This document shows, in pieces, positions 15,561-62,625 of a stretch of DNA of 64,000 nucleotides. A program made the position numbers and the translations under genes. The notes beneath the pieces are model-generated. The model was not told the origin of the DNA and ran no database searches. It saw only the letters and a list, made by a program, of their open reading frames with translations. Source of the stretch: an uncultured Chromatiales bacterium (GTDB lineage: Bacteria > Bacteroidota > Ignavibacteria > SZUA-365); the NCBI GenBank assembly GCA_964388275.1, contig CAYLZD010000020.1, positions 3,232-67,231 on the forward strand, read 5' to 3'. How positions within the stretch are numbered: the stretch's first letter is position 1; the number at the start of each line of letters is the position of its first letter.

Positions 15561-15633
15561 GCCATCCTAGCTCAGTTGGTAGAGCAGCTCACTCGTAATG
15601 AGCAGGTCGTCGGTTCGAGTCCGATGGATGGCT
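15561..15633 (+). tRNA. tRNA-Thr (anticodon CGT), CCA not encoded
   Basis: Full 73-nt cloverleaf: acceptor GCCATCC/GGATGGC, D arm GCTC/GAGC, anticodon arm GCTCA-CTCGTAA-TGAGC, T loop TTCGAGT. Confidence 0.98.
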
Positions 15634-30374: not shown

Positions 30375-30693
30375 AGCGGGGCTGGTTGAGTTTGCTTTGC
30401 TTGCCAGGAAATGCGGCGGAATAATGCGCATTTTGCCGATGAAAATCAAACGTGTATTCCCGTCAGTGTTTTTCTTGCGCGAGTCTCGCTGAAAGCTCAG
30501 GACCATCAACTCCAATTTCCATATTTGGCTCATAATACATATATTTCTCTGTTGATTCATCCAGTCCAACGTGAATCATACATTATACACGACTACAGGG
30601 GGAAGAAAAGGACTTTCGTTTCGGATTGCCGGGTAAGGATATTCGCGGTCGGTGATGCGAGTCTTTCAATCGGAGGCGGGGAAGCATTGAGGT

Positions 30694-36207: not shown

Positions 36208-39200
36208 TCAGGGCAGTACGGCCACTCTTGTGGACGTCCTGAATCGCCCTGTCTCGAGCACCAAGTGGTAGATGCCTGCTGACACGCGGCGTGGAGCGTC
36301 GAGGAGCAGAGTGCCGTCCGCCCGGACCCAGGCAAGCTGCGACTTTACAGCTTTGCCGAGAGCATCGAACCAGCGGACGGTGAGCTGTTCCGCCACAGCG
36401 CCGGAAACCGACAAGCTTAGCATGCCGTTGTTGATTCCGCTCAGGTGCAGAGGATTGGGATGCGCCGAACCGATGGTGAATTCGGCAGCACGGGCCTCAC
36501 GTGTGACGGATGATATGGGCCCCAGCGGATTGAGGACGAAGGTGTCGCGGTAGGTCACCGGCACCGTCGGACGCAGGATCAGGGAATCGCCCTTCGTGAA
36601 AGTAGACGCGCTGTCCTTTGCGTACACCCAGCCCGCATACATTATGGGTATAGACTTGGCGTCGTCGAGCAAGGCGGCTGAAAGAAGGTCCGGGTCCGGC
36701 TGGCCTGTGTACGGCGCGTCCAGCACGAACAGATACTCGCGGTCGGCCGCTGCGCGCGGGTCCCAGGTGTTGTTCGCCCGCGGGCCCCCGAGCTGCTCGA
36801 CGAAGGCGAGTTCGATCCGGCGGGGGGATGACGGGTCTCGGATGTCCCAAGCGCTCACAGGGATCTCGTGATATCCGGTGCAGCCGTAATTGGGCGTGCC
36901 GCCTCTTAAATATCCGTACGCCTTTTGAGGAGAGGACGGATCGAAGACCAGCGCGACCGCGTACAGCTCCATCAGGCCGGTCCTTGTGCCCCAGCCCCAA
37001 GCGTGACCCGTTCCGAATGGGATGTAGTCGATGAACCACTTGTTGCCGCTCGGCATGTACTCGACCGACAGCATTTCTTCTTCGAGCCTCCAGATCGGAT
37101 CGGCGTCGTAATCCAGCCAGTTCGAGTTCGCCGTGCCCAGCGTAAGCTTCCAGCCGTCGACGACGGGCATTTCATGCGCGTACAGCGAAGGAAGGGGCCG
37201 CCGCGTCAACAGTACGCGCGCGTCCGTGGCGTCTTCTATTGTCACGTAACGCTGAGCGTCCGTTTCCTCGCCCTCGATGTGGACGACGTAGGTGTGGTCC
37301 TTCATGGCGCCGCGGTCGACTACGCGGTAACCGAGGGCGCCGGTGCCGGGCCCGGAAATATGCCGCGTCAATGAATCGGCGGGAGGCGACGCGAACGCTT
37401 GCGCGGCGAGCTCGAGCGTGTCGCACCAGCAGTTGTTCACGGTGTCGTTTATGCTTACGGGCAGAAGGAAGATCTCGCCGTCCGTCGCGGCCGCGGGGAC
37501 ATCGAAACTGAGATAGGAAAGCTCGTCGAACGGATCATAGGGCCGGACGGTTTCGCTGTTGGAAGACACGAACGGCGTCTCTATGAACTCCGGCCGCCGC
37601 GGCTCGAAATCACGAGCGTACACCTTGACGGCCCCGGCATCGAAAGGCGTCGAATTCCGCACCGCGGCGCTGAAACGCACGTTCTCTCCCGGATTGGCTG
37701 CGCCGTCGAAATTCAGATGATCGGATTCGATCCTGTGCAGCCGGGCTGATACCTGTCCCGCAAGCGGTATGCACACACCGCCCGGCCATTCCATGCGTTT
37801 ATCGCCATCGTAGCCGGCTTCGACCGTAAAATCGACTCCGGCGTGTCTCCGCGGCGTGATCCACGAAGCCGAATAGACGAAATCCCCCGCGGACCCGTCA
37901 CCGTGCAGTCCGTCGTCGAAGAGCATGAAACGGGCGATCTCGATTCCCTGCTTGTCGCGGACGATCGCGCGGGCGGAGGAGCTGTTCAGAAGCGCGGCTC
38001 TGACGATCAATTCGGATGAATCGGTGTGGAAATACACGATTTCGTGCGAGATCTCCGGCAGGATATTCTCGCAAGCGGGATTGTCGTGGCACAATTGCAG
38101 TATGTCGGACGCTTTCCTCAATTCGACTATCTCCTCCCTCAGAAGAGGGCGCTGCGCGACGAGGTAGGCGTAAACCACTTCCTGCGTGTCTCCCCGCGCC
38201 ATCGTGAACGGTCCGGATGACAGCAGCATCCGACGGTCAGAGGGCTGGTGCACATCACCGTCGATCCAGCCGGCGCCGGTCGCAGGATCTCCGGCAAGAG
38301 GAAAGTTTGTGGGCGTTTTTGTATGCGGATCCACATGGGATCCCCCGGCGAACAGCCGTCCCTGCATGTTGTTGTAGAGCTGCGCCGCGCCGTACGGAGT
38401 TCCGAGATTCGGATCTCGGTACACCGCGTCGCTGTTGATATAGAAGGTAAAAGCGGTGATCGGAAGATTCCTGAAACCTTCACGCAATCCGGCGCCGAAG
38501 CGGGCGGTGGCGCCGCTCTCCGGCGCAATGGGGCCCTGAATCATGCGTATGCCGAGAGCCGGCGGATCGCCGTATCCGCCGTCCCGGGTCCTGCCGTTAT
38601 AGACAAATGCCATGTTCCGTGTCGTGTCCACTCCCACAAGATCATCCAGCCCGTCGCCCAGATCGGGATCGGTCCATCGTGCGAAATAAACGTCCTCGAA
38701 ATCGGAGGCGCCCCGGTTGATCAGAGTGTGCTTCACGAAAACCGCGTTGTCCAGAGGCGCGGGATTTCTGAATGCCCAGACCATTGTGCGGATTTCGAGT
38801 CCGACGGGCGGTGTTCCATAGAGCGTCGCCGTCCTGGTCGGATCCAGGTCGTTGGAGACGAACCACAGCGCCTCGTCGCCCGGGTATAGGGGCTTGTCGC
38901 CGGCCGACGAGTCGCTCAGCCAGGCGTTGAAATCCGGATCGTATTGTCCGTTGCCGTCCTCGTCGAAAATAGGCGCTCCGCCGCCGGCCGGCCATTCCGT
39001 GAAGTCGCGGCGCAGACGCTCCTGTTCCCGCGGCGGCAGGACGTCGAACTCAGCCCGCGTGATTCGCCGCGCCTTGTAGATGCGGAAAGCCGGATCGGAT
39101 GGGTCGGCCGCCTCGCCGTCGCTCTCTATGCCGCCGGCTTGCCAGCCGTAGCGGTACGTGGCGCCGCCCGCGCGAAACTCGCCGTCGGCTTTGCCCGCGT

Positions 39201-39462
39201 AAACCAGTCCGTCCGCGAAAATGCAATGTTTCCCCGAACCGCGGGGCCATTCGAAGCCCGCGCCGTCGCTCCCCGGATTATGCGCGGCGCTGCCGTTGCT
39301 GGAAAACCACATAAAAATGTTGTTGACGGAAACGGAATCGAAAACATCGTTTGTCAGCGATGCCACGGGGGATGTTTCCGCCGGCGCCACGGGACTCTGG
39401 CCCGCGGATTCGCCCGAATGCAACAGCAACAGTAAAACGATACAGCCCGGAATTCCTTTCAT
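36208..39462 (-). CDS. Large secreted protein of unknown function with T9SS-type CTD
   Basis: Signal peptide; GFEWPRGSG N-terminal region; FDDGLHGDGSAGDFVYS motif; CTD AHPNP..WFDALGKAV..SAGIYHL; start set at MKGIPG. Confidence 0.82.
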   Translation of the reverse strand: MKGIPGCIVLLLLLHSGESAGQSPVAPAETSPVASLTNDVFDSVSVNNIFMWFSSNGSAAHNPGSDGAGFEWPRGSGKHCIFADGLVYAGKADGEFRAGGATYRYGWQAGGIESDGEAADPSDPAFRIYKARRITRAEFDVLPPREQERLRRDFTEWPAGGGAPIFDEDGNGQYDPDFNAWLSDSSAGDKPLYPGDEALWFVSNDLDPTRTATLYGTPPVGLEIRTMVWAFRNPAPLDNAVFVKHTLINRGASDFEDVYFARWTDPDLGDGLDDLVGVDTTRNMAFVYNGRTRDGGYGDPPALGIRMIQGPIAPESGATARFGAGLREGFRNLPITAFTFYINSDAVYRDPNLGTPYGAAQLYNNMQGRLFAGGSHVDPHTKTPTNFPLAGDPATGAGWIDGDVHQPSDRRMLLSSGPFTMARGDTQEVVYAYLVAQRPLLREEIVELRKASDILQLCHDNPACENILPEISHEIVYFHTDSSELIVRAALLNSSSARAIVRDKQGIEIARFMLFDDGLHGDGSAGDFVYSASWITPRRHAGVDFTVEAGYDGDKRMEWPGGVCIPLAGQVSARLHRIESDHLNFDGAANPGENVRFSAAVRNSTPFDAGAVKVYARDFEPRRPEFIETPFVSSNSETVRPYDPFDELSYLSFDVPAAATDGEIFLLPVSINDTVNNCWCDTLELAAQAFASPPADSLTRHISGPGTGALGYRVVDRGAMKDHTYVVHIEGEETDAQRYVTIEDATDARVLLTRRPLPSLYAHEMPVVDGWKLTLGTANSNWLDYDADPIWRLEEEMLSVEYMPSGNKWFIDYIPFGTGHAWGWGTRTGLMELYAVALVFDPSSPQKAYGYLRGGTPNYGCTGYHEIPVSAWDIRDPSSPRRIELAFVEQLGGPRANNTWDPRAAADREYLFVLDAPYTGQPDPDLLSAALLDDAKSIPIMYAGWVYAKDSASTFTKGDSLILRPTVPVTYRDTFVLNPLGPISSVTREARAAEFTIGSAHPNPLHLSGINNGMLSLSVSGAVAEQLTVRWFDALGKAVKSQLAWVRADGTLLLDAPRRVSAGIYHLVLETGRFRTSTRVAVLP

Positions 39463-39613
39463 TTTGCCCTGCCCTGGGATGGTGAAGAGACCTGAATGCC
39501 GATCTCTTGACACTGCAACGGAGAGTCGGTTACATTCGCCCGAAGTTTCTTCGATGATTCGCGCTTGTTTAGATTGCCGGAGGACGAGTCCGTACTCGGC
39601 GCATTAATCATCG

Positions 39614-42805: not shown

Positions 42806-43951
42806 TCAAACGCGCCGACCGGCGAGGGAGAGCGCCAGCTCCGCAACGCGCGAGGACGCTCCCGGCGTCCCAAGTTTATCCCGCACCGCCAGGAGGCGCG
42901 CGCGCATGCCTTCACGAGCCTCAGCGCTTGCGAAAAAAGGTGAAAGCGCCTCTGCCAGGGCCTCGGCGGTCAAGTCGCTCTGAACGAATTCCGGGGACAC
43001 GGTTTCTCCCGCGAGTATGTTGACCATGCCGATGTTCCGGACCGTGATAAGTCGCTTTCCGATCTGGTAGTTCAGCCATCCGGTCCTGTACACTACCGCC
43101 ATGGGCGTTCCGTAGCAGGCCGTTTCCACGGTGGCCGTGCCGGATGTCACCATGGCGGCATGCGCATGCTGCATGAGGCCGTGTGTCGCGTTGCGCAGTA
43201 GCGCAGCGTCTTCATGGCCGCGCAGATGAGGCAGGTAATGGCTGTCCGGAAGCCGCGCCGCGCCAATCGCCCTCGCGCAGCCGTGGCGCTGCGAGAGTAT
43301 GCGCGACGCTTCGAGCATGACCGGGAGCATGCGTCTGACCTCCTGGGCGCGGGACCCTGGGAGCAGCGCGAGAATAGGACGCTCGGGAAGCCCTGTTGAT
43401 GCCAGGAATGCGCCGCGGTCGATTTCGGGCAGGATTTCCATGAGCGGATGGCCGACGAAGGTCGATGGGATGCCGAGTCTCCGGTACATCTCCTCCTCGA
43501 ACGGGAAGGCGACCGCGATATGGTCGACAAGTTCCCTCATAGCGGCCGCCCGCTTTCCGCCCCATGCCCAAACCTGAGGGCTTATGTAATACAGCACCGG
43601 AATGCCCGCTGCTTTCGCCGTGCGGGCGAGCCGCATGTTGAAGCCTGGGTAATCGATGAGTATCAGGGCGTCGGGCCGCCTGCGCAGCAGTTCATCGCGG
43701 CAGCGTTTCAGCATCGCGCGCAGAAAAGTGAAGCGCCGCGCCACTTCGATGAAGCCCATCACGGATGTGTCCCTGACGTGGTACAGGCATTCGCAGTCCT
43801 CGCCTTCCATCAGATCTCCACCGATGCCGAAAATGCGGACTCCCGGCGCCCGGTTGCGCAGAGCGGCCGCAGCTCGCGCGCCGTACATGTCGCCCGAGCT
43901 CTCGCCCGCAACCATCATGAACGACGGTCCGCCGTTTATCTGAACAGCCAT
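42806..43951 (-). CDS. lpxB: Lipid A disaccharide synthase
   Basis: AGESSGDMYG, IDYPGFN, YYISPQVWAW, FPFE, VGHPL, LLPGSR, SGTATVE; start set at MAVQIN. Confidence 0.95.
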   Translation of the reverse strand: MAVQINGGPSFMMVAGESSGDMYGARAAAALRNRAPGVRIFGIGGDLMEGEDCECLYHVRDTSVMGFIEVARRFTFLRAMLKRCRDELLRRRPDALILIDYPGFNMRLARTAKAAGIPVLYYISPQVWAWGGKRAAAMRELVDHIAVAFPFEEEMYRRLGIPSTFVGHPLMEILPEIDRGAFLASTGLPERPILALLPGSRAQEVRRMLPVMLEASRILSQRHGCARAIGAARLPDSHYLPHLRGHEDAALLRNATHGLMQHAHAAMVTSGTATVETACYGTPMAVVYRTGWLNYQIGKRLITVRNIGMVNILAGETVSPEFVQSDLTAEALAEALSPFFASAEAREGMRARLLAVRDKLGTPGASSRVAELALSLAGRRV

Positions 43952-44508
43952 ATTGCGACAATCACGGCGATGATCAGCGCGAAAGCTTGAAGCGTCCTGG
44001 CCTCCGATTGGCGGCCGGCCCGCCAATCGGGTTTGGTCTTCCGGGCGCCCGGCCATGGTGAAAGCCGGAACATGAAGCGCGGAACCGCGGCGCAATAAGT
44101 CCGGTATTCGTCGCCGAAACGCTGTATCAGAAAGCGCTCCTCCTCGCGGACGATCAGCGAGTACTGTATCGAGAAAAACACCAGGGCGGCCAGCGGCAGC
44201 CAGGGCATGAGAGCCATGGACATGACGCCCACTCCGAGATACATCATGATGTTTCCTAGATACAGGGGATTGCGCGTGTGCGCGAAGGGGCCGGCGGTCA
44301 CAAGACGGCTGGCGCCCACCTCGCCGGTGACTCGAGTTTCCGCTCCCACGTGCAGCACGCCCCAGGCCCTCAACGCTTCGCCTGCGAGGGCGAGGACGAA
44401 GCCGGACGCCAGGCTCGCGAGGGTGGGCCGCGCGAATATCAACATCACCGTCAGGAACGGAACAGGGGTGTAACCGCGGTATTTGAAGAACAAGGCGCTG
44501 GCGTTCAT
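43936..44508 (-). CDS. Isoprenylcysteine carboxyl methyltransferase (Ste14/ICMT) family membrane protein, LmtA-like
   Basis: FFKYRGYTP, GEALRAW, LVTAGPFAHTRNPLYLGN, EERFL..FGDEY..Y...VPRF; overlaps the lpxB start. Confidence 0.85.
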   Translation of the reverse strand: MNASALFFKYRGYTPVPFLTVMLIFARPTLASLASGFVLALAGEALRAWGVLHVGAETRVTGEVGASRLVTAGPFAHTRNPLYLGNIMMYLGVGVMSMALMPWLPLAALVFFSIQYSLIVREEERFLIQRFGDEYRTYCAAVPRFMFRLSPWPGARKTKPDWRAGRQSEARTLQAFALIIAVIVAIWLFR

Positions 44509-44543
44509 TAGCGCAAACTAATATCGAAAGGGAGCAATGCCAA
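44509..44543 (-). promoter_or_regulatory. Sigma70-type promoter, apparently leaderless, for the ICMT-lpxB operon
   Basis: Minus strand TTGGCA, 17 nt, TAGTTT, 6 nt, ATG (44508). Confidence 0.55.
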
Positions 44544-44671
44544 GAGATCCCGCATGATACCGGTGCGTCCGCTCGCGTTTCCATTCACGCTGAGGACCGG
44601 ATTCGTAATTTCGGAGGATTGCTTATATTGCCTTGTTGAATGTCGCTCAGCGCGAAGATCACGCACCGCAC

Positions 44672-45421
44672 ATGATTTCCAATCCGGGCAGATTGCAAAA
44701 GAAAACCGACGACAGGCTTCGACGCGGACGCCTTCTTTTCGAGGGACACACGAAACGTGTGTTCGAGACGAGCATTCCCGACAATGTCCTTCTCGAGTTC
44801 AAAGCGGAATTCTCCGGCCTCGATGAGAAACGAAGCGCCTCCGCTCCGCGCAAAGCGGCGCTTATGAACGACATCGCCGCGCACATCTTTCAATATCTGC
44901 AGAGCTTCCGCATACCCTCTCACTTCATTCAGAAACACGACGAGACGCAGTTGCTGGTGGCGCGGCTCGACATGATCCCTCTGGCAGTTGTCGTCAGAAA
45001 CATCGCCGAGGGATCGCTCTGCGGGCGGTACGGAATCGAAGAGCGGCGGGAGCTGGAGTTTCCGGTTGTCGAACTCATTTACCGCAACAGTCAACTCGAT
45101 TATCCTTTGGTAAACGAATCGCATCTGCTGGCGTTCGGCGTGTCGACGCCCGAGGAAATCCGGACCACGGTGCGCATCGCGACCAAGGCCAACGCCGTGC
45201 TGCGCTCTTTCATGGAGCGCCGCCGTCTGCGCCTCGTCGACATGTGGATGGAATTCGGGCGGAAAAACGGCGAGATACTGCTTGGCGATGCGATCATTCC
45301 CGACTCCATGCGCCTTCTCGACACCGAGACGGACGAACTGCACGACGGCGCGATATTCAGATTGGGCATAGGCGATTATCAGAAAGCTTACCGGGATTTG
45401 CATCAACGACTGCTCTCCTGA
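44672..45421 (+). CDS. SAICAR synthetase (PurC) homolog with degenerate active-site motifs
   Basis: Aligns end to end with PurC (VVVRN..GSL, P.VNESH, LVD..EFG, LLGD, PD.RL.D) but many invariant residues are changed; start may be 44633. Confidence 0.8.
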   Translation: MISNPGRLQKKTDDRLRRGRLLFEGHTKRVFETSIPDNVLLEFKAEFSGLDEKRSASAPRKAALMNDIAAHIFQYLQSFRIPSHFIQKHDETQLLVARLDMIPLAVVVRNIAEGSLCGRYGIEERRELEFPVVELIYRNSQLDYPLVNESHLLAFGVSTPEEIRTTVRIATKANAVLRSFMERRRLRLVDMWMEFGRKNGEILLGDAIIPDSMRLLDTETDELHDGAIFRLGIGDYQKAYRDLHQRLLS

Positions 45422-45431
45422 CGGAATTCAG

Positions 45432-46130
45432 ATGATACTTACGAAATACGGGCTCGACGTGGCAGTGCCGATCCTCGTCGTCTCCCTGGTGATGATAGCG
45501 GGAGCGTTTTTCATAACAAGCCTGCCGTTCAAGATCATATTTATTGCTCTTGGAGCCGCCATTTTCCTTTTCACCGCCAATTTTTTCCGCGATCCCGAGA
45601 GGCTGACCCCGCCGGATGAAAATGCGGTCGTTTCGCCCGCCGACGGCAAAGTCGTGTCGATCTCGGATGTGGAAGAGCCGGTTTTCATTGGCGGAAAGGC
45701 GAGGCAGGTGTGCATATTCATGTCACCGTTCGATGTGCACGTCAACCGTTTCCCGTCGACCGGCCGCGTGGGGTACTTCAGGCATATCGACGGCGCGTAT
45801 ACCGTGGCTTTCGCCGAGAAGTCCTCCGAGGTCAACGAGCGCACGCTGATTGGGCTGGAGACGGCGCACGGTCGCCTGCTGTTCAAGCAGATAGCCGGCT
45901 TCGTTGCCCGCAGAATCGTGTGCAAGCTCAATGTGGGTGACAAAGCCGTCGCCGGCGAGCGTTTCGGCATGATAAGGTTCGGATCGCGCGTGGATGTGCT
46001 CATGCCACCCGGCGTGGAAGTCGAAGTGTCGATTGGCCAGCGCGTCAAGGCGGGGGAAACCGTGATCGCGCATTTTTCGAAGCCGGGCGCCGCGAAGGCA
46101 ATTACGGACAGCGAAGGATCGACTCGGTGA
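45432..46130 (+). CDS. psd: Phosphatidylserine decarboxylase proenzyme
   Basis: FFRDPER, VSPADGKV, IFMSPFDVHVNR, QIAGFVARRI, FGSRVD cleavage site. Confidence 0.95.
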   Translation: MILTKYGLDVAVPILVVSLVMIAGAFFITSLPFKIIFIALGAAIFLFTANFFRDPERLTPPDENAVVSPADGKVVSISDVEEPVFIGGKARQVCIFMSPFDVHVNRFPSTGRVGYFRHIDGAYTVAFAEKSSEVNERTLIGLETAHGRLLFKQIAGFVARRIVCKLNVGDKAVAGERFGMIRFGSRVDVLMPPGVEVEVSIGQRVKAGETVIAHFSKPGAAKAITDSEGSTR

Positions 46131-46918
46131 GAATCCGACTCAGCCGATCGATCATTCCGAACCTTTTCACGGTTCTGAACATATACTTCGGCTTTTTGTG
46201 CATCGTGTACGCGTTTCATGGGCGTTACATGCTGGCGGGAATGTACGTGATATTGTCGGCGCTTTGCGACACGCTCGACGGCATCATGGCGCGACTGACG
46301 CATTCGGCCAGCGAGTTCGGCGTGGAATTGGATTCGCTCGCAGATGTGGTCAGCTTCGGCGCCGCGCCGTCCGTTCTCGTTTACCAGCTTTTCCTCCGCG
46401 ATCTCGGCCCCTTCGGCATGTTGCTGGCCGCCGCTCAGCTCATCTTCGGCGCCCTCAGATTAGCGCGTTTCAACGTGCAGCTGACGGGTCTTCACAAGGA
46501 GTATTTTACCGGAGTGCCCATACCCCTGTCGGCTCTGACGATCGTTTCCTTCATGTTCTTCTTCACCCCGGCAGCGATAGATCCCGCGTCCGCGTCCGAT
46601 CCGACCCTGCGCCACGTGTTCATCGGAGTGATAATTTCCTGCGGACTTCTGATGGTCAGCACCTTGCGCTATCCGGTGCTCCCGAAGCCCGGTTTGCGAA
46701 TGTTGCGTGAACATCCGATCCGCGCATTGATTTTTCTTGCCGCCGCCGCCGCTGCCGCGGTGTTTCAGGAGAAGGCGCTGTTTCCGATATTCGCCGCGAT
46801 CGTGCTGTCGGGCATTGTGAGAGCCGCGGTGGTGCGCATCGGCGGCGGCGCCCGTCGCAGACACTCCCAGAAGGAGAGCGAGGCGGGCAGCCCTGTACCT
46901 CTTGACACCAATCCTTGA
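46127..46918 (+). CDS. pssA: CDP-diacylglycerol--serine O-phosphatidyltransferase
   Basis: IPNLFT, DTLDGIMAR, GVELDSLADVVSFG, ALRLARFN; follows psd. Confidence 0.92.
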   Translation: MRIRLSRSIIPNLFTVLNIYFGFLCIVYAFHGRYMLAGMYVILSALCDTLDGIMARLTHSASEFGVELDSLADVVSFGAAPSVLVYQLFLRDLGPFGMLLAAAQLIFGALRLARFNVQLTGLHKEYFTGVPIPLSALTIVSFMFFFTPAAIDPASASDPTLRHVFIGVIISCGLLMVSTLRYPVLPKPGLRMLREHPIRALIFLAAAAAAAVFQEKALFPIFAAIVLSGIVRAAVVRIGGGARRRHSQKESEAGSPVPLDTNP

Positions 46919-46926
46919 GGATTCAT

Positions 46927-47184
46927 ATGCTCTTTCAAGCTTCCGTCACAGTCACGCGCCGGCCAACGATACTCGATCCGGAAGGCAAGGCCATCGAACA
47001 CGCGCTGCATGAGCTCGGATTGAATTCATTGTCGCAGGTCCGTGTCGGCAAGCGAATCGACACACGGGTGGAAGCGGCTGACGAGGCGGAAGCGCGCGCC
47101 GCGCTCGTAGAATCGTGCAGAAAACTGTTGGCAAATCCGGTGATGGACGACTTCGTCATCGAGTTGACGCCCGTGGAGGCCTGA
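46927..47184 (+). CDS. purS: FGAM synthase subunit PurS
   Basis: [24 protein letters not shown]. Confidence 0.92.
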
Positions 47185-47185
47185 C

Positions 47186-47914
47186 ATGCGACCTGTCCGT
47201 TTCGGAGTCGTCGTATTCCCCGGTTCCAACTGCGATCACGACGCCTATCACGCCGCGAAGCACGCGCTGGGCCAGGACGCGGAATTCCTCTGGCACAGGG
47301 ATGTATCGCTTCGAGAAAGCGATGTCGTGATTTTGCCGGGCGGATTCTCATACGGCGACTATCTCCGCTGCGGTTCGATAGCGCGCTTCTCGCCCATAAT
47401 GAAAGAAGTCATACGATTCGCAGAAGACGGCGGCTACGTCCTGGGCATCTGCAACGGTTTTCAGATTCTGTGCGAGTCGGGTTTGCTGCCCGGCGCGCTC
47501 CTGAGAAACGCGTCGCTGCGTTTCGTCTGCCGCCGAGTGCATCTCCGCGCGGAAAATCCCCGAACGGCCTTCACACGCGCGCTGTCTCCCGGCCGTGTCC
47601 TCTCGATTCCCATTGCGCATGGAGAGGGAAATTACTATACTGACACCGATACACTGGCCGAATTGAACACCCGCGGCCAGGTGCTTTTCCGTTATTGCGA
47701 CGCGGAGGGCCGAGTCACCGGCGAGGCGAATCCGAACGGCTCCTGCGAGAATATAGCAGGGATAATGAACCGGCGGGGCAATGTCGTGGGCATGATGCCG
47801 CATCCGGAACGAAGCATGGAAACCATTTTGGGTTCGGTGGATGGAAAAGGAATATTTCAGTCAATGATCGACACGATCACAGGCGTCATTCAGAACGCCA
47901 AAGGCAAGGAGTGA
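47186..47914 (+). CDS. purQ: FGAM synthase glutaminase subunit PurQ
   Basis: [38 protein letters not shown]. Confidence 0.97.
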
Positions 47915-47918
47915 CATC

Positions 47919-48113
47919 ATGTTCGGAAATATAGGCACAGGCGAAATAATTCTCCTCCTGGTCATCGTTCTGGTGTTCTTCGGCGCCAGGAAAATTCCGG
48001 AACTGGCGCAGGGTCTCGGGAAAGGGCTCAGGGAATTTCGCAAAGCGACGAAGGATATCCAGGATGACATCTCGCTGGAAGACAGAAAAATCGAAGAGAA
48101 GAAACAGAACTGA
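47919..48113 (+). CDS. tatA: Twin-arginine translocase subunit TatA/E
   Basis: MFGNIG..EIILLLVIVLVFFG..KIPELA.GLGKGLREF; AGGAG SD. Confidence 0.93.
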   Translation: MFGNIGTGEIILLLVIVLVFFGARKIPELAQGLGKGLREFRKATKDIQDDISLEDRKIEEKKQN

Positions 48114-48173: not shown

Positions 48174-49589
48174 ATGACTTACTCATCCGCGCGCGCCGCG
48201 CTGTTTGCAGGCGAGACCAGCTGCAGACGCCTGGTCACGGACGCGCTTGAGACAGCGGGCGCATCCCGGCAGTTCAACGCCTTCCTCGAACTCTATGAAG
48301 ACGCTCTCGACGAGGCCGAAAAGATAGACGCCAGAATCGCCGCCGGGAGAGGCGGGCCGTTGGCCGGTCTGACCGTCGCGGTCAAGGACAACATGTGCCG
48401 CCGCGGCAAACGTCTTTCCTGCGGGTCGCGCATACTCGAGGGCTTCACTTCGGTATACGATGCAACGGCCCTGCGCCGGCTTCTGGAGGCCGATGCGATC
48501 CTGATCGGGCGCACGAACATGGATGAATTCGCGATGGGATCCTCCAACGAGAACTCGGCGTTCGGGCCGGTCCTGAATCCCGCGGATCCTGAACGCGTCC
48601 CCGGCGGTTCGAGCGGGGGATCTGCAGTGGCGGTGGCCTCCGGCGCGGTCATGGCGGCGCTCGGCTCCGACACGGGGGGCTCGGTGCGGCAACCGGCCGC
48701 ATTCACCGGCGTCGTCGGATTGAAACCCGGCTACGGTAGAATATCCAGGCACGGGCTGGTCGCTTTCGCTTCCTCGCTCGATCAGATCGGAATTTTCTCC
48801 TCGAACGTGGAGGACGCCGCCCGAGTGCTCTCGGTCATTGCGGGCCATGATCCGCGCGACTCCACGAGCGACACTGCGCCTTCGGAGGACTACACGGCAC
48901 GCTTGACGGAGCCGATAAAGGGGCTCCGGGTGGGGATACCAGGCGAGTTCCTCCCGCCCGAGCTCGAAGAGGGCCCACGCGCCGCTGTGGACAGGGCCGC
49001 GGCCGCGTTTCACCGGATCGATGCGGGGGTGGTTCCGGTGTCGCTGCCCCATTCCTGCTATACGATTCCAACATACGCCATCATAGCCACCGCAGAGGCC
49101 TCCTCCAATCTGGCCCGCTTCGACGGCATACGGTACGGTTTGCGCCGCGCCGGGGATTCCCACGGCGAAACCAATATCCGGACACGTTCATCCGGATTTG
49201 GCGGCGAAGTCAAGCGGCGCATAATGCTCGGCGCATACGTCCTTTCGGCAGGATACGTGGACGCCTATTATCGCAGGGCCCAGAAGGTGAGGACGTTGAT
49301 CGCGAGGGATTTCGAGGAGGCGTTCCGCGGCGCGGACCTTCTAATGACCCCGACCACGCCGGGCACCGCCTTCAGGCTGGGGGAACGCGTCCGGGATCCG
49401 CTGAAAATGTATCTTTCCGACCTTTTCACCGCGTCCGCCAATCTCGCCGGCTTGCCCGCGATGCATGTGCCTGCCGGCCGCGACGCGGAAGGACTGCCCG
49501 TCGGAGTTCAACTGATCGCTCCGGAAAGAAACGAGGCGCTGATGCTGCGCGCCGCCGCAACTCTGGAGCGGGAACTGCAAGATGTGTGA
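48174..49589 (+). CDS. gatA: Glu/Asp-tRNA amidotransferase subunit A
   Basis: VKDN, NMDEFAMGSS, PGGSSGGS, GSDTGGSVRQPA, SNLARFDG, EVKRRIMLG. Confidence 0.95.
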   Translation: MTYSSARAALFAGETSCRRLVTDALETAGASRQFNAFLELYEDALDEAEKIDARIAAGRGGPLAGLTVAVKDNMCRRGKRLSCGSRILEGFTSVYDATALRRLLEADAILIGRTNMDEFAMGSSNENSAFGPVLNPADPERVPGGSSGGSAVAVASGAVMAALGSDTGGSVRQPAAFTGVVGLKPGYGRISRHGLVAFASSLDQIGIFSSNVEDAARVLSVIAGHDPRDSTSDTAPSEDYTARLTEPIKGLRVGIPGEFLPPELEEGPRAAVDRAAAAFHRIDAGVVPVSLPHSCYTIPTYAIIATAEASSNLARFDGIRYGLRRAGDSHGETNIRTRSSGFGGEVKRRIMLGAYVLSAGYVDAYYRRAQKVRTLIARDFEEAFRGADLLMTPTTPGTAFRLGERVRDPLKMYLSDLFTASANLAGLPAMHVPAGRDAEGLPVGVQLIAPERNEALMLRAAATLERELQDV

Positions 49590-50355
49590 TCGCGATTCGA
49601 CAGGCGCGCGGATGAAGGCGGAATCGGATCGGAGCGAGCAGCCGGCGCCGATGCTGAGGATTTACTGCGATTTCGACGGGACTGCGACGCCCGTGGATGT
49701 GGGCGACGAATTTTTCCCTCGCTTCGCCGGACCGGAAGCTCTCGAAGTCAACCGGCTGTACCGAGACGGCAGCATTTCGGGCCGCGAGGCCTTCTCACGG
49801 TACGCGGACATGCTGGAGGGCGTGGACGAGGAATCGATCGAGCTGTTCTCCATAGGATATTCCCTGCGGCCTTCCTTCATTCCTTTCGTCGAATGGGCCG
49901 GCAGAGCGGGAATTTCGCTCATGATCCTGAGTGACGGACTCGACGCGTATATCGAACCGATACTCAGGGATTCGGGTGTTTCTATCCCGGTCAGAACGAA
50001 CCAACTGAAGATTCGCAAAGACTCCGCCTGCAGAATCGTTCATCCGTACAGCGACGAGAATTGCGCCGCCTGCGGAACCTGCAAGAGAAACGTCATGCTC
50101 TGCGGCGCGGCGGATCGCGACATCATCGTGCTCATCGGAGACGGGATGTCGGATTTCTGTCCCGCCGGATACGCCGACATCGTGTTCGCGACCGGCGAAC
50201 TGGTGGATTACTGCCGGCGGCAGAACATCAGTTACCGCCGTTTCGAAACGTTCGACGATGTGCGGCGGGATCTTTGCGGCATGCTGCAACGCGGGAAAAT
50301 GCGCCGTCCCCGGCAGGCGTTACAGGCCCGCGAGCTGGTGTGGCGGAGCGGATGA
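49582..50355 (+). CDS. HAD-IB phosphatase, MtnX-like
   Basis: CDFDGT motif I, SDG, CAACGTCK, IGDGMSD; start uncertain. Confidence 0.8.
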   Translation: MCDRDSTGARMKAESDRSEQPAPMLRIYCDFDGTATPVDVGDEFFPRFAGPEALEVNRLYRDGSISGREAFSRYADMLEGVDEESIELFSIGYSLRPSFIPFVEWAGRAGISLMILSDGLDAYIEPILRDSGVSIPVRTNQLKIRKDSACRIVHPYSDENCAACGTCKRNVMLCGAADRDIIVLIGDGMSDFCPAGYADIVFATGELVDYCRRQNISYRRFETFDDVRRDLCGMLQRGKMRRPRQALQARELVWRSG

Positions 50356-50389
50356 AAGCCCTGAAGACGCCGGAACAGAAACAGCCGCA

Positions 50390-51418
50390 ATGCAAACCAC
50401 AACCATAGACGCGCCCCAACGCGATCCTTCGCTCAGACCGGGGCAGATAATCAAGCACCTCGCCTTATTGCTGTTGACCTTGCTCACCACGCTCGTAGCG
50501 GGCATGCTGTGGCAGAACGTCAGGGATCTGACCCAAATCGGTCTGGGACTTCCGTACGCTCTCAGCCTTTTATTCATATTGTCCTGTCACGAATTCGGAC
50601 ATTACTTCGCCGCGAGACGTCACAAGGTCTCGGTGACGCTTCCGTATTTCATACCGCTGCCCCCGATCGACATTATAAGCTTCGGAACGCTCGGCGCCGT
50701 CATCAGAACAAGGCAGCGCATCGACAATCCAAAATCGCTTTTTGATATCGGAATCGCTGGACCGATAGCCGGCTTCATTGCCAGCATGGTGGTGCTCGCA
50801 GTCGGGTTCATGAGTCTTCCCGGACCCGAGTTCATCCTCTCGATTCATCCGGATTTCGACTTCGCGATCAATACGATACCCGGCATACCGCCGGGCATGA
50901 CGCTGACGTTCGGAAGGCCCTTGCTCTACGGAGTATTTGAACATCTCTTCGCTCCGGCAGGCGCCTGGGTTCCTCCAATGTGGGAAATGTATCACTATCC
51001 TCTGCTGATGACGGGATGGTTCGGCCTTTTCGTTACCGCCATGAATCTTCTGCCTGTGGGCCAGCTCGACGGCGGTCACATACTCTTCGCACTCAATCAG
51101 CGCATGCATCGCCGGATCGCCAGAGTGGTCGTTTTTTTTCTGCTTTTTTTCGGATTGATGGGCTTGCTGCCGGATCTTTTGCATTTTACCGGCCAGGAAA
51201 TAATTGCAATCGAGTTGCTTGAATTATTTGCAAATTACAGGGCTCTTTTCTGGCCCGGGTGGTTGTTCTGGCTTTTTATAATCTTATTTTTTATTAAGAT
51301 CGATCATCCGGAGATCAGAATAAACGAAGAACCGGGGCAGCGAAGAATCCTGCTCGGGATCGTCGCCATGCTGATTTTCGTCTTATCGATAGCTCCGGCG
51401 CCTCTATTTTTCCAGTAA
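50390..51418 (+). CDS. Site-2 protease family (M50) membrane metalloprotease
   Basis: HEFGH, PYFIP, GTLGAVI, IAGP, NLLPVGQLDGGH; start set at MQTTTI. Confidence 0.9.
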   Translation: MQTTTIDAPQRDPSLRPGQIIKHLALLLLTLLTTLVAGMLWQNVRDLTQIGLGLPYALSLLFILSCHEFGHYFAARRHKVSVTLPYFIPLPPIDIISFGTLGAVIRTRQRIDNPKSLFDIGIAGPIAGFIASMVVLAVGFMSLPGPEFILSIHPDFDFAINTIPGIPPGMTLTFGRPLLYGVFEHLFAPAGAWVPPMWEMYHYPLLMTGWFGLFVTAMNLLPVGQLDGGHILFALNQRMHRRIARVVVFFLLFFGLMGLLPDLLHFTGQEIIAIELLELFANYRALFWPGWLFWLFIILFFIKIDHPEIRINEEPGQRRILLGIVAMLIFVLSIAPAPLFFQ

Positions 51419-51457
51419 ATTTTTTCAGAAAAAAAGCGCAGTGGACCTATTCTGGAA

Positions 51458-51488
51458 TTGACTTTTGCATGGCTGTTGGGTATGTTTG
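51458..51488 (+). promoter_or_regulatory. Strong sigma70-type promoter of the lipoprotein-PorV operon
   Basis: TTGACT (51458-51463), 17 nt, TATGTT (51481-51486); also reads TATGTTTG. Confidence 0.65.
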
Positions 51489-51581
51489 TTTTGCCTCCTT
51501 GATAGTGTGATTGTAAGCCGGGGCATGCATCCAAAAGGTGCCCCGGCTTCGTCATATCAGGACACTTTATAACCGAATTGA

Positions 51582-52406
51582 ATGATAGCGTGTTTTAGAT
51601 TTCTCTTCGTATTCACTGTCGCTGCGGTTTTTCTAGCATGCAGTGAAGATTCCTCCGTATCGGACCCGGCGTTTCCGGACACACCCAAGTCGTTCACCGG
51701 TTTGCGGCTGTCGGAATATGTTTACGATACGGATTCGATAGACGTGCAAGCGGGACGCGACAAGTCGCCCGCCGACAGGATCACTTTGAATATCCGGGTC
51801 GAAGCCGAAGCGGATTCGGCTGTTCAGGACGGACCGCCTGTGGTGAGCGCGCGCTGTGCGATAACACAGGACGGCAAGGACCGCACTCTCGCCGAAGCGG
51901 AACTTCAGCGGGATTCTTCGGGGAGTTTCGGCGGAGTCGTCCGGCTCGGCATTGCCCGCGGGGATGTGGGAGACTACCGCCTGACCGTGAGGGGATTCGA
52001 TGCGAGAGGAAACGCGTCGCTGCCGATTCACACCAAGCTCCGCGTTCTCGCGGGCGGTAGACCGCCGTACTTCTGCGGACTCACGGCCCCGGACACGGTC
52101 GATCTGCCTGACGACGGTTTCATACTCATTCTTATCGAGGCCTGCGTGGCGGATTCAAGCGGCGCGGGAGACATCAAGCGGGTGCTGTTCAATTCCTTTC
52201 TGCCCAGCGGCACGCCGTCCAGCGGAAATCCATTCTTCATGTTCGACGACGGAAGCCATGGCGACCGCATCGCGGGCGATGGAATATATTCCCTGAACAT
52301 TCAACTCCCCTCCACGGCGCAGAAAGGCCGTTACCGTTTCGAATTCTTCGCTTACGATCTGGGCAATCTGAACGCCTTTCTTTCACACACGATCACAGTT
52401 CGCTGA
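51582..52406 (+). CDS. Lipoprotein with two Ig-like domains and a choice-of-anchor-X-like motif
   Basis: Lipobox FLA-C followed by acidic SEDS; FDDGSHGDRIAGDGIYS. Confidence 0.8.
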   Translation: MIACFRFLFVFTVAAVFLACSEDSSVSDPAFPDTPKSFTGLRLSEYVYDTDSIDVQAGRDKSPADRITLNIRVEAEADSAVQDGPPVVSARCAITQDGKDRTLAEAELQRDSSGSFGGVVRLGIARGDVGDYRLTVRGFDARGNASLPIHTKLRVLAGGRPPYFCGLTAPDTVDLPDDGFILILIEACVADSSGAGDIKRVLFNSFLPSGTPSSGNPFFMFDDGSHGDRIAGDGIYSLNIQLPSTAQKGRYRFEFFAYDLGNLNAFLSHTITVR

Positions 52407-52407
52407 C

Positions 52408-54012
52408 ATGACGACTCGGAAACGCCGTAAGTCGGCCGCCTTCATCCTCAGCATCATCCTCATCCCGTTTTCCGCAGCCGCATACGGGCAGGCTGGGCCT
52501 GAATCTTTCGGTTTGAACAAGATCGTTTCGAGCGGCGGCACGCGTCCTCTCAGCAACAGCGCCATCGACATGCTCGCGCGCGGCGACAGCATTTGGATCG
52601 CCGGGGGCAAGGGATTGGACCTCACGACGGACGGCGGCCGTTCATGGCGTCACTTGGGCGAAGAAGCGCCTTTCGATCTCGAGGACATAGCCGCGCTGGA
52701 TGCGCACGGATCCGTGATCTGGGTCTCGCTCGCGGGCTCCGAGAAACTCGACGACGGATCCACACTGCCGAAAGGACTGGGCCTCGCGGTGTCCACGGAC
52801 AACGGCGCTTCCTGGACTCGGATCGAACAACCGCAGGAAGCGGTCGGCGACTCGACTTTCGAGATCATGTACGGCGCGAACCGCATAAAAGGCCTGGCGA
52901 TCACGACGCCCATAAACAACATCACTTACGATATCGCGGTCACCTCCCGCGCCGTATGGACGGCGAGCTTTGCGGGAGGACTTCGAAAATCCTCCGACGG
53001 AGGCCGCACGTTTTCACCCGTCCTGTTGCCGGGCGACAACCTGGACTCGATAAGGGACACAGATACGCTGAACTTCGAACTTTCGCCGGTCGACCGTCCG
53101 GATCTCTGGAATCAGGGCGGCACATCTAAAGGCATGCGAGGCAGTCTCAACCATCGTGTGTTCTCTCTGTATGCGGAGGATGACACGACACTCTGGGTGG
53201 GCACGGCGGGCGGGATCAATCTCACAACGGATGAAGGGCGTTCATGGCGCAAATTCACGTATGCCAATCAGAGTTTTCCGATATCGGGAAATTTTGTGGT
53301 GGCTCTCGGAAGCAATACCATCGACGGCTCGCGACGCCTGTGGGCCTCGACGATCAACGCGCTGGAGCCGCAGGAATTCCGCTCCGTCAGCATGACCTCG
53401 GACCGGGGGGCGACCTGGACGAACGCGCTGAGGGGAGAATTCACGCATAATTTCGGATTCAAGGGTTCCGTGGTCTACGCGGCCACGAATTCGGGCGTAT
53501 TCCGTTCCGACGACGCTGGGCGTACGTGGACGCTGCACGACGTGTTCGTCGATCCGATATCGCGCAGCCGTTCCGTGGATCCGCGATGCTATTCAGCGGC
53601 CGTGCTCGGCGACACGGTCTGGGTGGCCAATGCGGACGGACTGATGACGACGGTGGATTCCCGGGATCGCTTTTTCGGATCCTCCTGGTCGCTCAAGCGC
53701 GCTGCTCGTCCTCCGGATGCGGACGGCATGGCGTATGCCTATCCGAATCCTTTCACTCCCGCGAATGACGTCTGCCGCGTGAGATACAGAACGGACGCCG
53801 CCGGCACGGTCAGCATCGACGTTTTCGATTTCGCGATGTATCCGGTGCGCGCATTGTTGAGAAACGCCGCGAGGCCTGCGGATACGGAATTGGACGAGAT
53901 CTGGGATGGAACAGACGACGGCGGGCAGCGTGTCGCCAACGGACTCTACTATATCCGGGTTCAAGCGGGAAACCGGGATGCCGCGTGGACCAAGGTGGTG
54001 GCGCTGCAATGA
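52408..54012 (+). CDS. Secreted BNR/Asp-box beta-propeller with FlgD-Ig-type CTD
   Basis: Repeated S/T-x-D-x-G-x-S/T-W boxes; C-terminal YAYPNPF..WDGTDDGG..VANGLYYI. Confidence 0.85.
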   Translation: MTTRKRRKSAAFILSIILIPFSAAAYGQAGPESFGLNKIVSSGGTRPLSNSAIDMLARGDSIWIAGGKGLDLTTDGGRSWRHLGEEAPFDLEDIAALDAHGSVIWVSLAGSEKLDDGSTLPKGLGLAVSTDNGASWTRIEQPQEAVGDSTFEIMYGANRIKGLAITTPINNITYDIAVTSRAVWTASFAGGLRKSSDGGRTFSPVLLPGDNLDSIRDTDTLNFELSPVDRPDLWNQGGTSKGMRGSLNHRVFSLYAEDDTTLWVGTAGGINLTTDEGRSWRKFTYANQSFPISGNFVVALGSNTIDGSRRLWASTINALEPQEFRSVSMTSDRGATWTNALRGEFTHNFGFKGSVVYAATNSGVFRSDDAGRTWTLHDVFVDPISRSRSVDPRCYSAAVLGDTVWVANADGLMTTVDSRDRFFGSSWSLKRAARPPDADGMAYAYPNPFTPANDVCRVRYRTDAAGTVSIDVFDFAMYPVRALLRNAARPADTELDEIWDGTDDGGQRVANGLYYIRVQAGNRDAAWTKVVALQ

Positions 54013-55094
54013 ACGGCGAGCTGTTGACAGGCATAGGCGCCATGCGGAAGCAATCCATTACCGCGGCCCGAAATCCGGAAAGAAGTGCGGTAGCATCGCG
54101 CGTGTGGTTCGTCATCGCCCTGTTGACCTTTCTCGCGGTTTCCCTGGAAGCGCAGCCCGGCGGCAGAGCCGGAGCGTTTACGCGCCTCGGTTTCGGCGCG
54201 AGGGGACAGGGCATGGGCAACGCTCTAACGGCGGTCAACACCGGGCACATTACAACCGTGTACAATCCGGCTCTTTCGCCCTTTCAGAAGAGCAGGCTTC
54301 TTTACGGCAGCTACGGCATGCTCGCTCTCGACCGCAAGCTGAACCAGATCTGTTACATTCAACCGATACGCATCGAGAAAAAGGGCGCGAACAAATACGC
54401 CGAGGATCCCGACGCGCAATCCCTGGCCGGCGTTTCGGCAGGCTGGATCAACGCCGGGGACGCGGACGTTCAAGGATACGACAGCGACGGATTCAAAACC
54501 GAAATGCTCAGCGTATTCGAGAACCAGTTCTACCTGAATTTCGGCACTCGCTTCAGCGAGAGACTCTCGGTGGGTTTCAACGCGAAGTTCTATTACTCCG
54601 GCCTGTATCGCGACGTGACAAGCTCCGGTTTCGGAATAGATCTGGGAGCGCTTTATCAGTTGGCGGATGGCCTGACCGTGGCCGTTGTCCTGCAGGATCT
54701 TCTCACGAAGTACAAATGGGATACCGGGAAGCTCTACGGTCCCGAGCAGGGACGCGCCACTGAAGACGCTTTTCCCCTGATCACGCGCCTGGGCGCGGCT
54801 TACATGATTGACCTCATGGGAGGCCTCCTTATCGCCGCCGATATGGAGCTGTTCGACGGCGGCGCGCCGCTTGCCCGGATAGGAGGAGAACTGCGCCTGG
54901 CGGAGCAGTTCTCCGTCCGCGCCGGCGCCGACCGCATCGATCTGGGAGGTTCCGGAATCGACGCCAGGCCTTCCGCGGGCGTCTCATTCTCGCAGCCGGT
55001 CGCGTCATTGCGCCCGGAAATACAGTATGCCTTCATTCTCGAGCCCGTTGCGCCGTCGCCCACTCATGTGCTTTCGTTCTTACTTTCGTTCTGA
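54009..55094 (+). CDS. PorV/UPF0164-family outer-membrane barrel, paralog 1
   Basis: GFGARGQGMGNA..YNPA N-terminal motif, GFGIDLGALY, C-terminal Phe. Confidence 0.78.
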   Translation: MNGELLTGIGAMRKQSITAARNPERSAVASRVWFVIALLTFLAVSLEAQPGGRAGAFTRLGFGARGQGMGNALTAVNTGHITTVYNPALSPFQKSRLLYGSYGMLALDRKLNQICYIQPIRIEKKGANKYAEDPDAQSLAGVSAGWINAGDADVQGYDSDGFKTEMLSVFENQFYLNFGTRFSERLSVGFNAKFYYSGLYRDVTSSGFGIDLGALYQLADGLTVAVVLQDLLTKYKWDTGKLYGPEQGRATEDAFPLITRLGAAYMIDLMGGLLIAADMELFDGGAPLARIGGELRLAEQFSVRAGADRIDLGGSGIDARPSAGVSFSQPVASLRPEIQYAFILEPVAPSPTHVLSFLLSF

Positions 55095-62516: not shown

Positions 62517-62625
62517 ACGGCACGAAACATTTGCCGGCCCTGTCTTACCGGTCGCTCGTGAAAGCGGCGCAGGGCCGCGAATAGCAACCGCCGCGGCGGA
62601 CCATGCAATTACAGGAGTGTGAACT

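Follow-up and report, generated by a model that had tools for sequence, protein, structure and literature searches.

We analysed a 64,000-nucleotide stretch of DNA (contig CAYLZD010000020.1 of assembly GCA_964388275.1; hereafter the window) and focused on the gene at the head of its psd-pssA-purS-purQ operon. This head gene encodes a 249-residue protein, the head protein, derived from PurC, the phosphoribosylaminoimidazolesuccinocarboxamide (SAICAR) synthetase. Sequence comparison, selection analyses and structure prediction suggest that the head protein is maintained by selection, has lost the ability to make SAICAR and now serves another role, a reading to which we give a probability of about 60%. 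The element is defined as follows:

44672 to 45421, + strand: head gene, 249-residue PurC-derived protein with a SAICAR-synthetase fold (open reading frame, profile match and predicted model)

The open reading frame (ORF) on the + strand is intact from its ATG at 44672 to the stop at 45421. An identical protein, with the same gene call, is present on three Joint Genome Institute (JGI) metagenome contigs and one Logan contig, and the DNA runs with the gene place the organism in anaerobic-digester, wastewater and bioreactor metagenomes; no RNA run was among those holding it. An alternative upstream start, TTG 44633, is possible but receives no backing from the relatives. An earlier reading of the DNA letters without database searches (the sequence-only reading) had described a full-length intact ORF alignable to PurC. 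Indeed, PF01259 (SAICAR_synt) matched the head protein over nearly the whole profile (positions 2 to 231 of 233) with an E value of 7.6e-52 and 176.8 bits. On TIGR00081, the NCBI equivalog model for PurC, the head protein scored 139.6 bits, under the cut-off of 189.9, and two canonical controls scored 231.6 and 271.1 bits. Its closest solved structures are short-form PurCs, which align without gaps at ∼35 to 40% identity; in the alignment with Escherichia coli PurC (2GQR) the offset is constant, each window residue number being the E. coli number plus 15. An AlphaFold2 model, computed with 33 relatives as input, had a mean predicted local distance difference test score (pLDDT) of 87 and a predicted template modelling score of 0.83. 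The model superposes on the short-form SAICAR synthetases 2YWV, 3NUA and 2GQR with a template modelling (TM) score of ∼0.82, from which the fold appears to be intact.

The residues that carry out SAICAR synthesis are described in a quantum-chemical study of human PAICS, which was built on E. coli structures with ADP and carboxyaminoimidazole ribonucleotide (CAIR) and human structures with SAICAR and the ATP analogue AMP-PNP. In that study E97 and D137 ligate MgB/MgC, holding the CAIR carboxylate/N3 and the ATP γ-phosphate; K19, N43 and K131 touch ATP; T40, K191, K228 and R232 bind both aspartate carboxylates; and E193 and D207 sit in the modelled active site (PMC9376930). In the head protein both carboxylates that ligate MgB/MgC are absent: human E97 (E. 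coli E90) is replaced by A105 and human D137 (E. coli D129) by Y144, at positions where the canonical PurCs compared have E and D. Among the 34 sequences of the window clade (the window protein and its 33 relatives), position 105 is A in 30 and otherwise S, G or P, and position 144 is N, Y, H or S. The aspartate site is likewise dismantled, with W192 (34/34) in place of human K191 (E. coli K177), G226 (33/34) in place of human K228 (E. coli K211) and S48, which varies in the clade; only R230 is kept. The DDATAFN loop, which carries T40 and N43, reads AEFSGLD. Further replacements are human K17 (E. coli K11) by H26, human D133 (E. coli D125) by S140, and E. coli D212, which has no human entry, by A227.

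Other parts of the site are retained. Residues K28 (E. coli K13), R109 (R94), N110, S115 (S100), D190 (D175), E194 (E179), D206 (D191), R214 (R199) and R230 (R215) are all present. We take human E193 and D207, by their E. coli equivalents E179 and D191, to be the MgA ligands. The ligands of the CAIR 5′-phosphate and ribose and of MgA (R109, S115, D190, R214, R230, E194 and D206) are invariant in the clade, except for S115 (23/34). In the GKxK loop G25 and K28 are kept and the first lysine, H in the window protein, is R, Q, H or K across the clade, and in the K-D-D strand the loss of D125 is accompanied by a conservative exchange of K123 for R138.

The substitutions are coordinated and go beyond chance. 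At 22 key columns the window protein has 13 differences and its 33 close relatives 10 to 15, and there are no intermediates: among the 26 nearest canonical PurCs listed (P0035–P0060), 25 have none, the exception being P0041, the C terminus of which is garbled. Of 63 columns conserved at ≥95% in 86 PurCs from outside the clade, only 30 survive in it. The newly invariant residues W192, F47 and G226 line the former aspartate site. Every motif replacement listed in the sequence-only reading is present, namely GKAK to G25-H-T-K28, FKDDATAF to FKAEFSGL, KGxxNN to KAALMN, EVVVRN to A105-VVVRN, KDDxxxDP to R138-NSQLD-Y144-P, DFKLEFG to D190-M-W192-MEFG, GDE to GDA and DKDxFR to D225-G226-A227-IFR. Two of these had been over-read as catalytic losses. 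Human PAICS has V where GDE has its E, which is thus not a universal catalytic residue, and the exchange of K for R at 138 is conservative, with K still found in 10 of the 34 clade members.

The age of these changes and the selection on the gene argue against recent decay. A homologue search returned 33 clusters at 52 to 73% identity and then fell abruptly to canonical PurCs at ≤44%; all 33 relatives carry the same substitutions (position 105, position 144, W192 and G226), and mean identity over the 34 sequences is ∼50%. Thus the possibility that relatives have intact motifs at this locus, which would have indicated recent decay, was not borne out. Ratios of nonsynonymous to synonymous substitution rates (dN/dS) were computed by the Nei-Gojobori method (NG86) for unsaturated pairs of relatives, loci being denoted by L numbers. 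The head gene gave 0.051 (L018/L019), 0.022 (L019/L020), 0.034 (L033/L034), 0.056 (L024/L026), 0.120 (L038/L039) and 0.144 (L043/L044), and this range of 0.02 to 0.14 falls within that of psd, pssA, purS and purQ in the same pairs. Pairs that include the window itself are saturated or nearly so (for example, 0.19 at a dS of 1.44 for the window and L014). Identity among clade members is 63% for the head protein, 59 to 63% for psd and 65 to 71% for purQ, and none of the complete head genes among ∼110 loci has an internal stop. With dN/dS this low and the head protein conserved to the same degree as the enzymes around it, the data exclude a decaying pseudogene. The clade-wide substitutions, the strong purifying selection in relatives and the retained fold support the earlier proposal of a retained, repurposed protein. 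Two marks of a pseudoenzyme are found together here: key residues missing clade-wide, with three further lineages degraded differently, and purifying selection on the protein.

The sequence-only reading had placed the gene at the head of a psd-pssA-purS-purQ operon. This is right, and the block runs on to tatA and gatA:

45432 to 46130, + strand: psd, short-type phosphatidylserine decarboxylase, starting 10 nucleotides past the head-gene stop
46127 to 46918, + strand: pssA, CDP-diacylglycerol-serine O-phosphatidyltransferase, with a 4-nucleotide overlap with the psd stop
46915 to 47184, + strand: purS, over the NCBIfam equivalog cut-off; the JGI call starts at ATG 46927
47186 to 47914, + strand: purQ, glutaminase subunit of formylglycinamidine ribonucleotide (FGAM) synthase, scoring 340.7 against an equivalog cut-off of 212
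47919 to 48113, + strand: tatA, 4 nucleotides past purQ, a member of the conserved block
48174 to 49589, + strand: gatA-like amidase, a conserved downstream member in most lineages
42806 to 43951, - strand: lpxB, divergent from the head gene
43936 to 44508, - strand: PEMT/ICMT-family membrane methyltransferase, overlapping lpxB and divergent from the head gene
44509 to 44671, no strand: 163-nucleotide intergenic region between the PEMT-like gene (-) and the head gene (+), the presumed promoter region

Spacers from the head gene through tatA are −4 to +10 nucleotides, and in 92 of 98 loci the head-gene stop lies within 17 nucleotides of the nearest in-frame psd start. The lpxB and PEMT-like pair is conserved beside the head gene in the window clade, which, with psd and pssA, makes this a compact lipid-biosynthesis neighbourhood. 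Besides purS and purQ, no pur gene and no second PurC-like ORF was found within the window. A search with Rfam gave no riboswitch or leader at gathering score across the window and only chance-level matches in 44440–44740; a scan for sigma-70 promoters and terminators was uninformative for this phylum. Farther downstream (50258–55094 and 59895–64000), the window carries a run that is conserved with clade members (L005 and L007) and encodes a HAD phosphatase, a second M50 peptidase, a protein of no assigned family and Sortilin/BNR-repeat proteins.

Degraded PurCs occupy the same operon position in other lineages. A scan with the clade profile of one genome per GTDB species recovered 32 loci, labelled Ignavibacteria, Ignavibacteriales, Ignavibacteriaceae, Calditrichia, Bacteroidota and Chlorobiota. 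In 30 of them the order is PurC-like gene, psd, then pssA/purS/purQ/tatA/gatA, as far as the locus extends; the exceptions are L027, which ends just past the gene, and L029, from Sulfobacillus. A scan of JGI metagenome contigs added 80 loci, all of the Ignavibacteriaceae type designated IgnA. Four of the loci (L013, L017, L021 and L022) lie in third-party-annotation metagenome-assembled genomes (MAGs) titled "uncultured Chromatiales" or "Ectothiorhodospiraceae" and carry a Bacteroidota/Ignavibacteria-type operon, with lpxB, PEMT, and neighbours of the type IX secretion system type in L017; these labels look wrong.

The extent of degradation differs among these lineages. The Calditrichia head gene keeps the P-loop, K131, E193 and D207 and has lost the ribotide ligands (R to Y, R to T or L, and D to R, N or S). 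The IgnA head gene has lost the P-loop, E193, R101 and more, and a further form, IgnB, matches no Pfam or NCBIfam model. TIGR00081 scores are 150 bits for Calditrichia, 139 to 142 for the window clade, 117 for L022, 40 for IgnA and none for IgnB; thus every degenerate lineage misses the cut-off, whereas canonical PurCs score 232 to 271. For the IgnA form a SAICAR-synthetase fold is nevertheless predicted (pLDDT of 87, TM of ∼0.8). All degenerate lineages share the loss of K17, T40, E97 and K191 (human numbering), which would fit one ancestral relaxation followed by drift in each lineage. A neighbour-joining tree places the degenerate lineages on one side of the canonical cluster, which is compatible with a single relaxation without being decisive, and we give it little weight because long-branch effects are possible. 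Because the ribotide ligands are missing from the Calditrichia form, and the P-loop and the counterpart of E194 from the Ignavibacteriaceae form, the family as a whole has no catalytic site in common.

Gene order around the head gene also varies among the loci. Sulfobacillus L029 has the order purC-purS-purQ with a fully canonical PurC, presumably the older arrangement. By contrast, four loci of one Ignavibacteriaceae sublineage (L074, L077, L082 and L097) read head gene, psd, pssA, tatA, tatA, gatA (for example, L077:6154-10153) and have no room for purS or purQ, and dN/dS of the head gene there is 0.08 to 0.10. Because the gene is kept without purS and purQ and is closely spaced to psd, it goes with psd-pssA, or with the position at the head of the block, and not with purS/purQ. 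Ignavibacteriaceae loci (L032–L035, L045 and many of L046–L125) have two, sometimes three, tandem tatA genes past purQ, and the window has one.

One contiguous segment is common to the four degenerate lineages, a helix that is variable in most canonical PurCs:

45173 to 45223, + strand: codons of helix residues 168 to 184 (R-IAT-K-A-NAVLRSF-M-ERR), conserved in all four degenerate lineages

Its consensus is R-x3-K-x-N-A-V-L-(R/K)-S-F-x-(E/D)-R-(R/K), with the core NAVLRSFxERR; the remaining residues common to the four lineages are scattered (Y75, L76, P82, N110, L128, P131, L188 and F195). From helix periodicity, R168, K172, A175, S179 and E182/R183 would lie on one exposed face, with small residues central and charges flanking, and we infer that this face may be a partner-contact surface.

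The sequence-only reading had supposed that SAICAR synthesis is supplied by another gene. Only for a sister lineage was such a gene shown directly. Locus L110 lies on a Baltic Sea contig of 29,956 bp, and a canonical long-form purC sits at the edge of that contig, 6.6 kb upstream of the head gene; the N-terminal 122 residues encoded there contain GKVRDIY, STDRLSAFD, KGKVL and IESVVRGYITGS. A search with this fragment gave 1558 matches, the closest named of which come from Ignavibacteriaceae (90% identity), Ignavibacteriales, Melioribacteraceae and Ignavibacteria MAGs, and in these long-form relatives the remaining motifs are intact (ADTK(M/F)EFG, DE..TPDSSRFW and FDKQFVRD). Thus, a genuine PurC is encoded elsewhere in at least the Ignavibacteriaceae-type genomes; assuming a separate long-form PurC in the window's own clade is an extrapolation. 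Long-form loci have the order purC(long), GBBH-like, pgsA, pgpA, cinA, ligT, recA, recX. Since the long-form gene adjoins phospholipid genes as well, both PurC forms neighbour CDP-alcohol phosphatidyltransferases. The GBBH-like_N protein and pgsA (CDP-alcohol phosphatidyltransferase) lie beside long-form purC in L126:10001-12000, L129:331-2580 and L130:10001-12257. In four loci the long-form gene is split by one frameshift each (L126:10001-10900, L127:10001-10889, L129:331-1230 and L130:10001-10900), probably through assembly or sequencing error, the short query favouring fragment proteins.

Of the explanations other than a repurposed protein, that of a decaying pseudogene, or of an ORF kept for operon architecture only (promoter or translational coupling), would account for the many lost catalytic residues and for the tight psd spacing. 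It is effectively refuted by the selection data: the ORF is intact at every complete site in ∼110 loci, dN/dS in relatives is low, identity equals that of psd, pssA and purQ, and the fold is predicted with confidence. The sequence-only reading had also suggested a scaffold for PurS/Q/L. A non-catalytic subunit or scaffold of FGAM synthase (PurS/PurQ/PurL) would be in keeping with the co-operonic purS-purQ of most loci and with the old purC-purS-purQ order seen in Sulfobacillus; however, the sublineage that retains the head gene with psd, pssA, tatA and gatA but no purS/purQ, at a dN/dS of ∼0.09, weakens this proposal, and the head gene always adjoins psd and never purS, so we regard such a role as highly improbable.

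That the head protein is the organism's working SAICAR synthetase, its active site having diverged unusually far, is improbable as well, if less so. It shares an operon with intact purS and purQ, keeps R94, S100, D175, E179, D191, R199 and R215 (E. coli numbering), is labelled PurC by the databases and is accompanied by no other purC in the 64 kb. Against this, the protein lacks E90, D129, K177 and K211, four residues that human PAICS and every canonical PurC compared but one have unchanged; TIGR00081 scores it under the equivalog cut-off; and what the sister lineages encode at the same locus is much too degraded for an enzyme, with a canonical long-form purC nearby in at least one such lineage. 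More credible, though still unlikely, is a neofunctionalised enzyme that still uses ATP-Mg and a 5-phosphoribosyl substrate but in a different reaction, such as phosphoryl transfer or a ligation in which a small or hydrophobic nucleophile takes the place of aspartate. In the 34 clade sequences, at a mean identity of ∼50%, the ATP/MgA and phosphoribosyl ligands do not vary, and with W192, G226, F47 and A105 invariant or nearly so, the pocket looks remodelled rather than drifting. But both MgB/MgC carboxylates, which this fold needs to place the γ-phosphate and the acceptor, are gone (PMC9376930), and no catalytic site is shared over the Calditrichia and Ignavibacteriaceae operon counterparts.

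Several observations weigh against the reading of a retained, non-SAICAR-making protein. Brown et al. used six E. coli ADP/CAIR contacts (R94, S100, D175, E179, R199 and R215) to judge archaeal PurCs (PMC3261824), and all six are retained in the head protein, which leaves room for reduced or altered activity; the loss would hence be specific to the carboxylate-activation and aspartate sites and not extend to "everything". The proposed catalytic inactivity is itself deduced from the residues. Searches by tblastn and phmmer with the head protein, three canonical short-form PurCs, yeast Ade1 and the Ignavibacteria long-form fragments found no second purC in the window or in window-clade loci, L110 being the only match. 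The canonical PurC of Chlorobium already has ...NTVLRSFFAERK..., and this partial presence means that the helix motif was there before catalysis was lost and may have a partly structural role. Finally, the order of the genes does not by itself distinguish a functional link to Psd/PssA from operon inertia.

The retained-protein reading would run as follows. By its position, the head protein would descend from a short-form purC that stood first in a purC-(psd-pssA)-purS-purQ block, in an ancestor of the Ignavibacteria-like and the Calditrichia-like bacteria. A long-form PurC encoded separately would most likely carry out SAICAR synthesis, and the copy in the operon would have lost its chemistry. 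With A105 and Y144 in place of the acidic residues, the protein would be unable to coordinate the pair of Mg2+ ions to which the CAIR carboxylate and the ATP γ-phosphate are bound, and with W192 and G226 in place of the lysines and the DDATAFN loop gone, it would be unable to bind the two aspartate carboxylates. Strong purifying selection has kept it as a folded protein, which would not be a SAICAR synthetase. Because the ATP/MgA (K28, E194 and D206) and phosphoribosyl ligands are invariant and new invariant residues line the pocket, the protein probably still binds a nucleotide and/or a ribotide, and the earlier suggestion of a ligand sensor is plausible for the window clade, where these ligands are invariant. 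The most likely partner would be the co-translated Psd/PssA phospholipid module, in which case the head protein would be a non-catalytic, possibly nucleotide-responsive accessory factor. A bolder version, which we advance tentatively and consider doubtful as a whole, is that the head protein founds a widespread pseudoenzyme family (Ignavibacteriota, Calditrichota and related members of the Bacteroidota group) of soluble subunits with an accessory or regulatory function in the phosphatidylserine synthase/decarboxylase module; in the window clade the protein might couple phospholipid synthesis to purine-nucleotide status by means of its retained nucleotide/ribotide pocket, through the helix R..K.NAVLRSFxERR.

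The head protein is a member of a large family in Ignavibacteria-like bacteria that has gone unrecognised. Its protein clusters number at least 400 (∼34 from the window clade and at least 372 from a profile search), and they are named phosphoribosylaminoimidazolesuccinocarboxamide synthase wherever the source gives a name. Because the family is labelled as an active enzyme, reconstructions from Ignavibacteria- and Calditrichia-like MAGs may credit this purine step to the wrong gene, and they may also overlook a real gap in the pathway. In this family a single enzyme scaffold is seen with its active site lost to different extents: the ribotide and ATP-MgA sites are present in the window clade, the ATP site only in Calditrichia and little in Ignavibacteriaceae, and one group is beyond Pfam detection; the helix and the operon position are fixed throughout. 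The consistent coupling to psd-pssA, with lpxB and the PEMT-like gene adjoining in the window clade, may point to a link between a purine-enzyme fold and membrane lipids.

Elsewhere in the window, a 1589-residue ORF at 22227–26996 (-) carries HYDIN/ASH/DUF1573 Ig-like repeats, and two ORFs, of 1101 residues at 36208–39513 (-) and 636 residues at 28659–30569 (-), have no Pfam match. The G+C fraction falls to 0.55 over ∼26 to 32 kb and ∼0.61 in the rest of the window. The segment 13457–18287 holds trpE/trpG (anthranilate synthase, - strand), a tRNA at 15561–15633 and then, adjacent to each other, metK and ahcY, which encode S-adenosylmethionine synthetase and S-adenosylhomocysteine hydrolase.

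Among known systems, the nearest is short-form PurC itself (EC 6.3.2.6; PF01259, TIGR00081; E. coli 2GQR/2GQS, Geobacillus kaustophilus 2YWV and Clostridium perfringens 3NUA). The head protein has the same fold and length, aligning without gaps over residues 21 to 247, the same CAIR-phosphate/ribose ligands, MgA ligands and second P-loop lysine, and the same ancestral position by purS-purQ. It differs in lacking E. coli E90, D129, K177, K211, D212, K11 and the DDATAFN loop, in falling under the equivalog cut-off, in its new invariant residues W192, G226 and F47 and in the psd-pssA pair lying between it and purS. Long-form PurC (the yeast Ade1/Mycobacterium/Bacteroidota type) belongs to the same superfamily and is probably the actual SAICAR maker in these lineages. 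Unlike the head protein, it has ∼300 residues, a different locus (next to pgsA-pgpA-cinA-recA in Ignavibacteria-type contigs) and all catalytic motifs intact (GKVRD, DRxSAFD, E-xVRGY-GS, DTKxEFG, DE..TPDSSRFW and DKQ..R), and the head protein matches the long-form NCBIfam model NF009251 with an E value of only 8e-11.

In the searchable literature we found no description of a bacterial PurC pseudoenzyme or PurC-derived family, and purines are not a subject of the genome papers on Ignavibacterium album and Melioribacter roseus. The nearest account, by Brown et al. 2011, covers archaeal extra or truncated purC-like genes (Thermococcus TK0432/TGAM_1268 and Methanosarcina barkeri Mbar_A3291) and proposes that some PurC-like proteins are not SAICAR synthetases (PMC3261824). 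Those cases resemble ours in that a canonical purC is accompanied by another PurC-like gene whose activity is doubtful, but they are truncated genes or recent duplications in which the contact residues persist; they do not form a deep family that spans several lineages, has lost its active site in a coordinated way and has a conserved lipid-gene context. The head protein fits the pattern of pseudoenzymes that arose from metabolic enzymes or kinases and serve as regulatory partners, a class to which we assign it by sequence logic only: the fold is kept, catalytic residues are lost, the protein is under purifying selection, and an active paralogue exists, in this case shown in a sister lineage.

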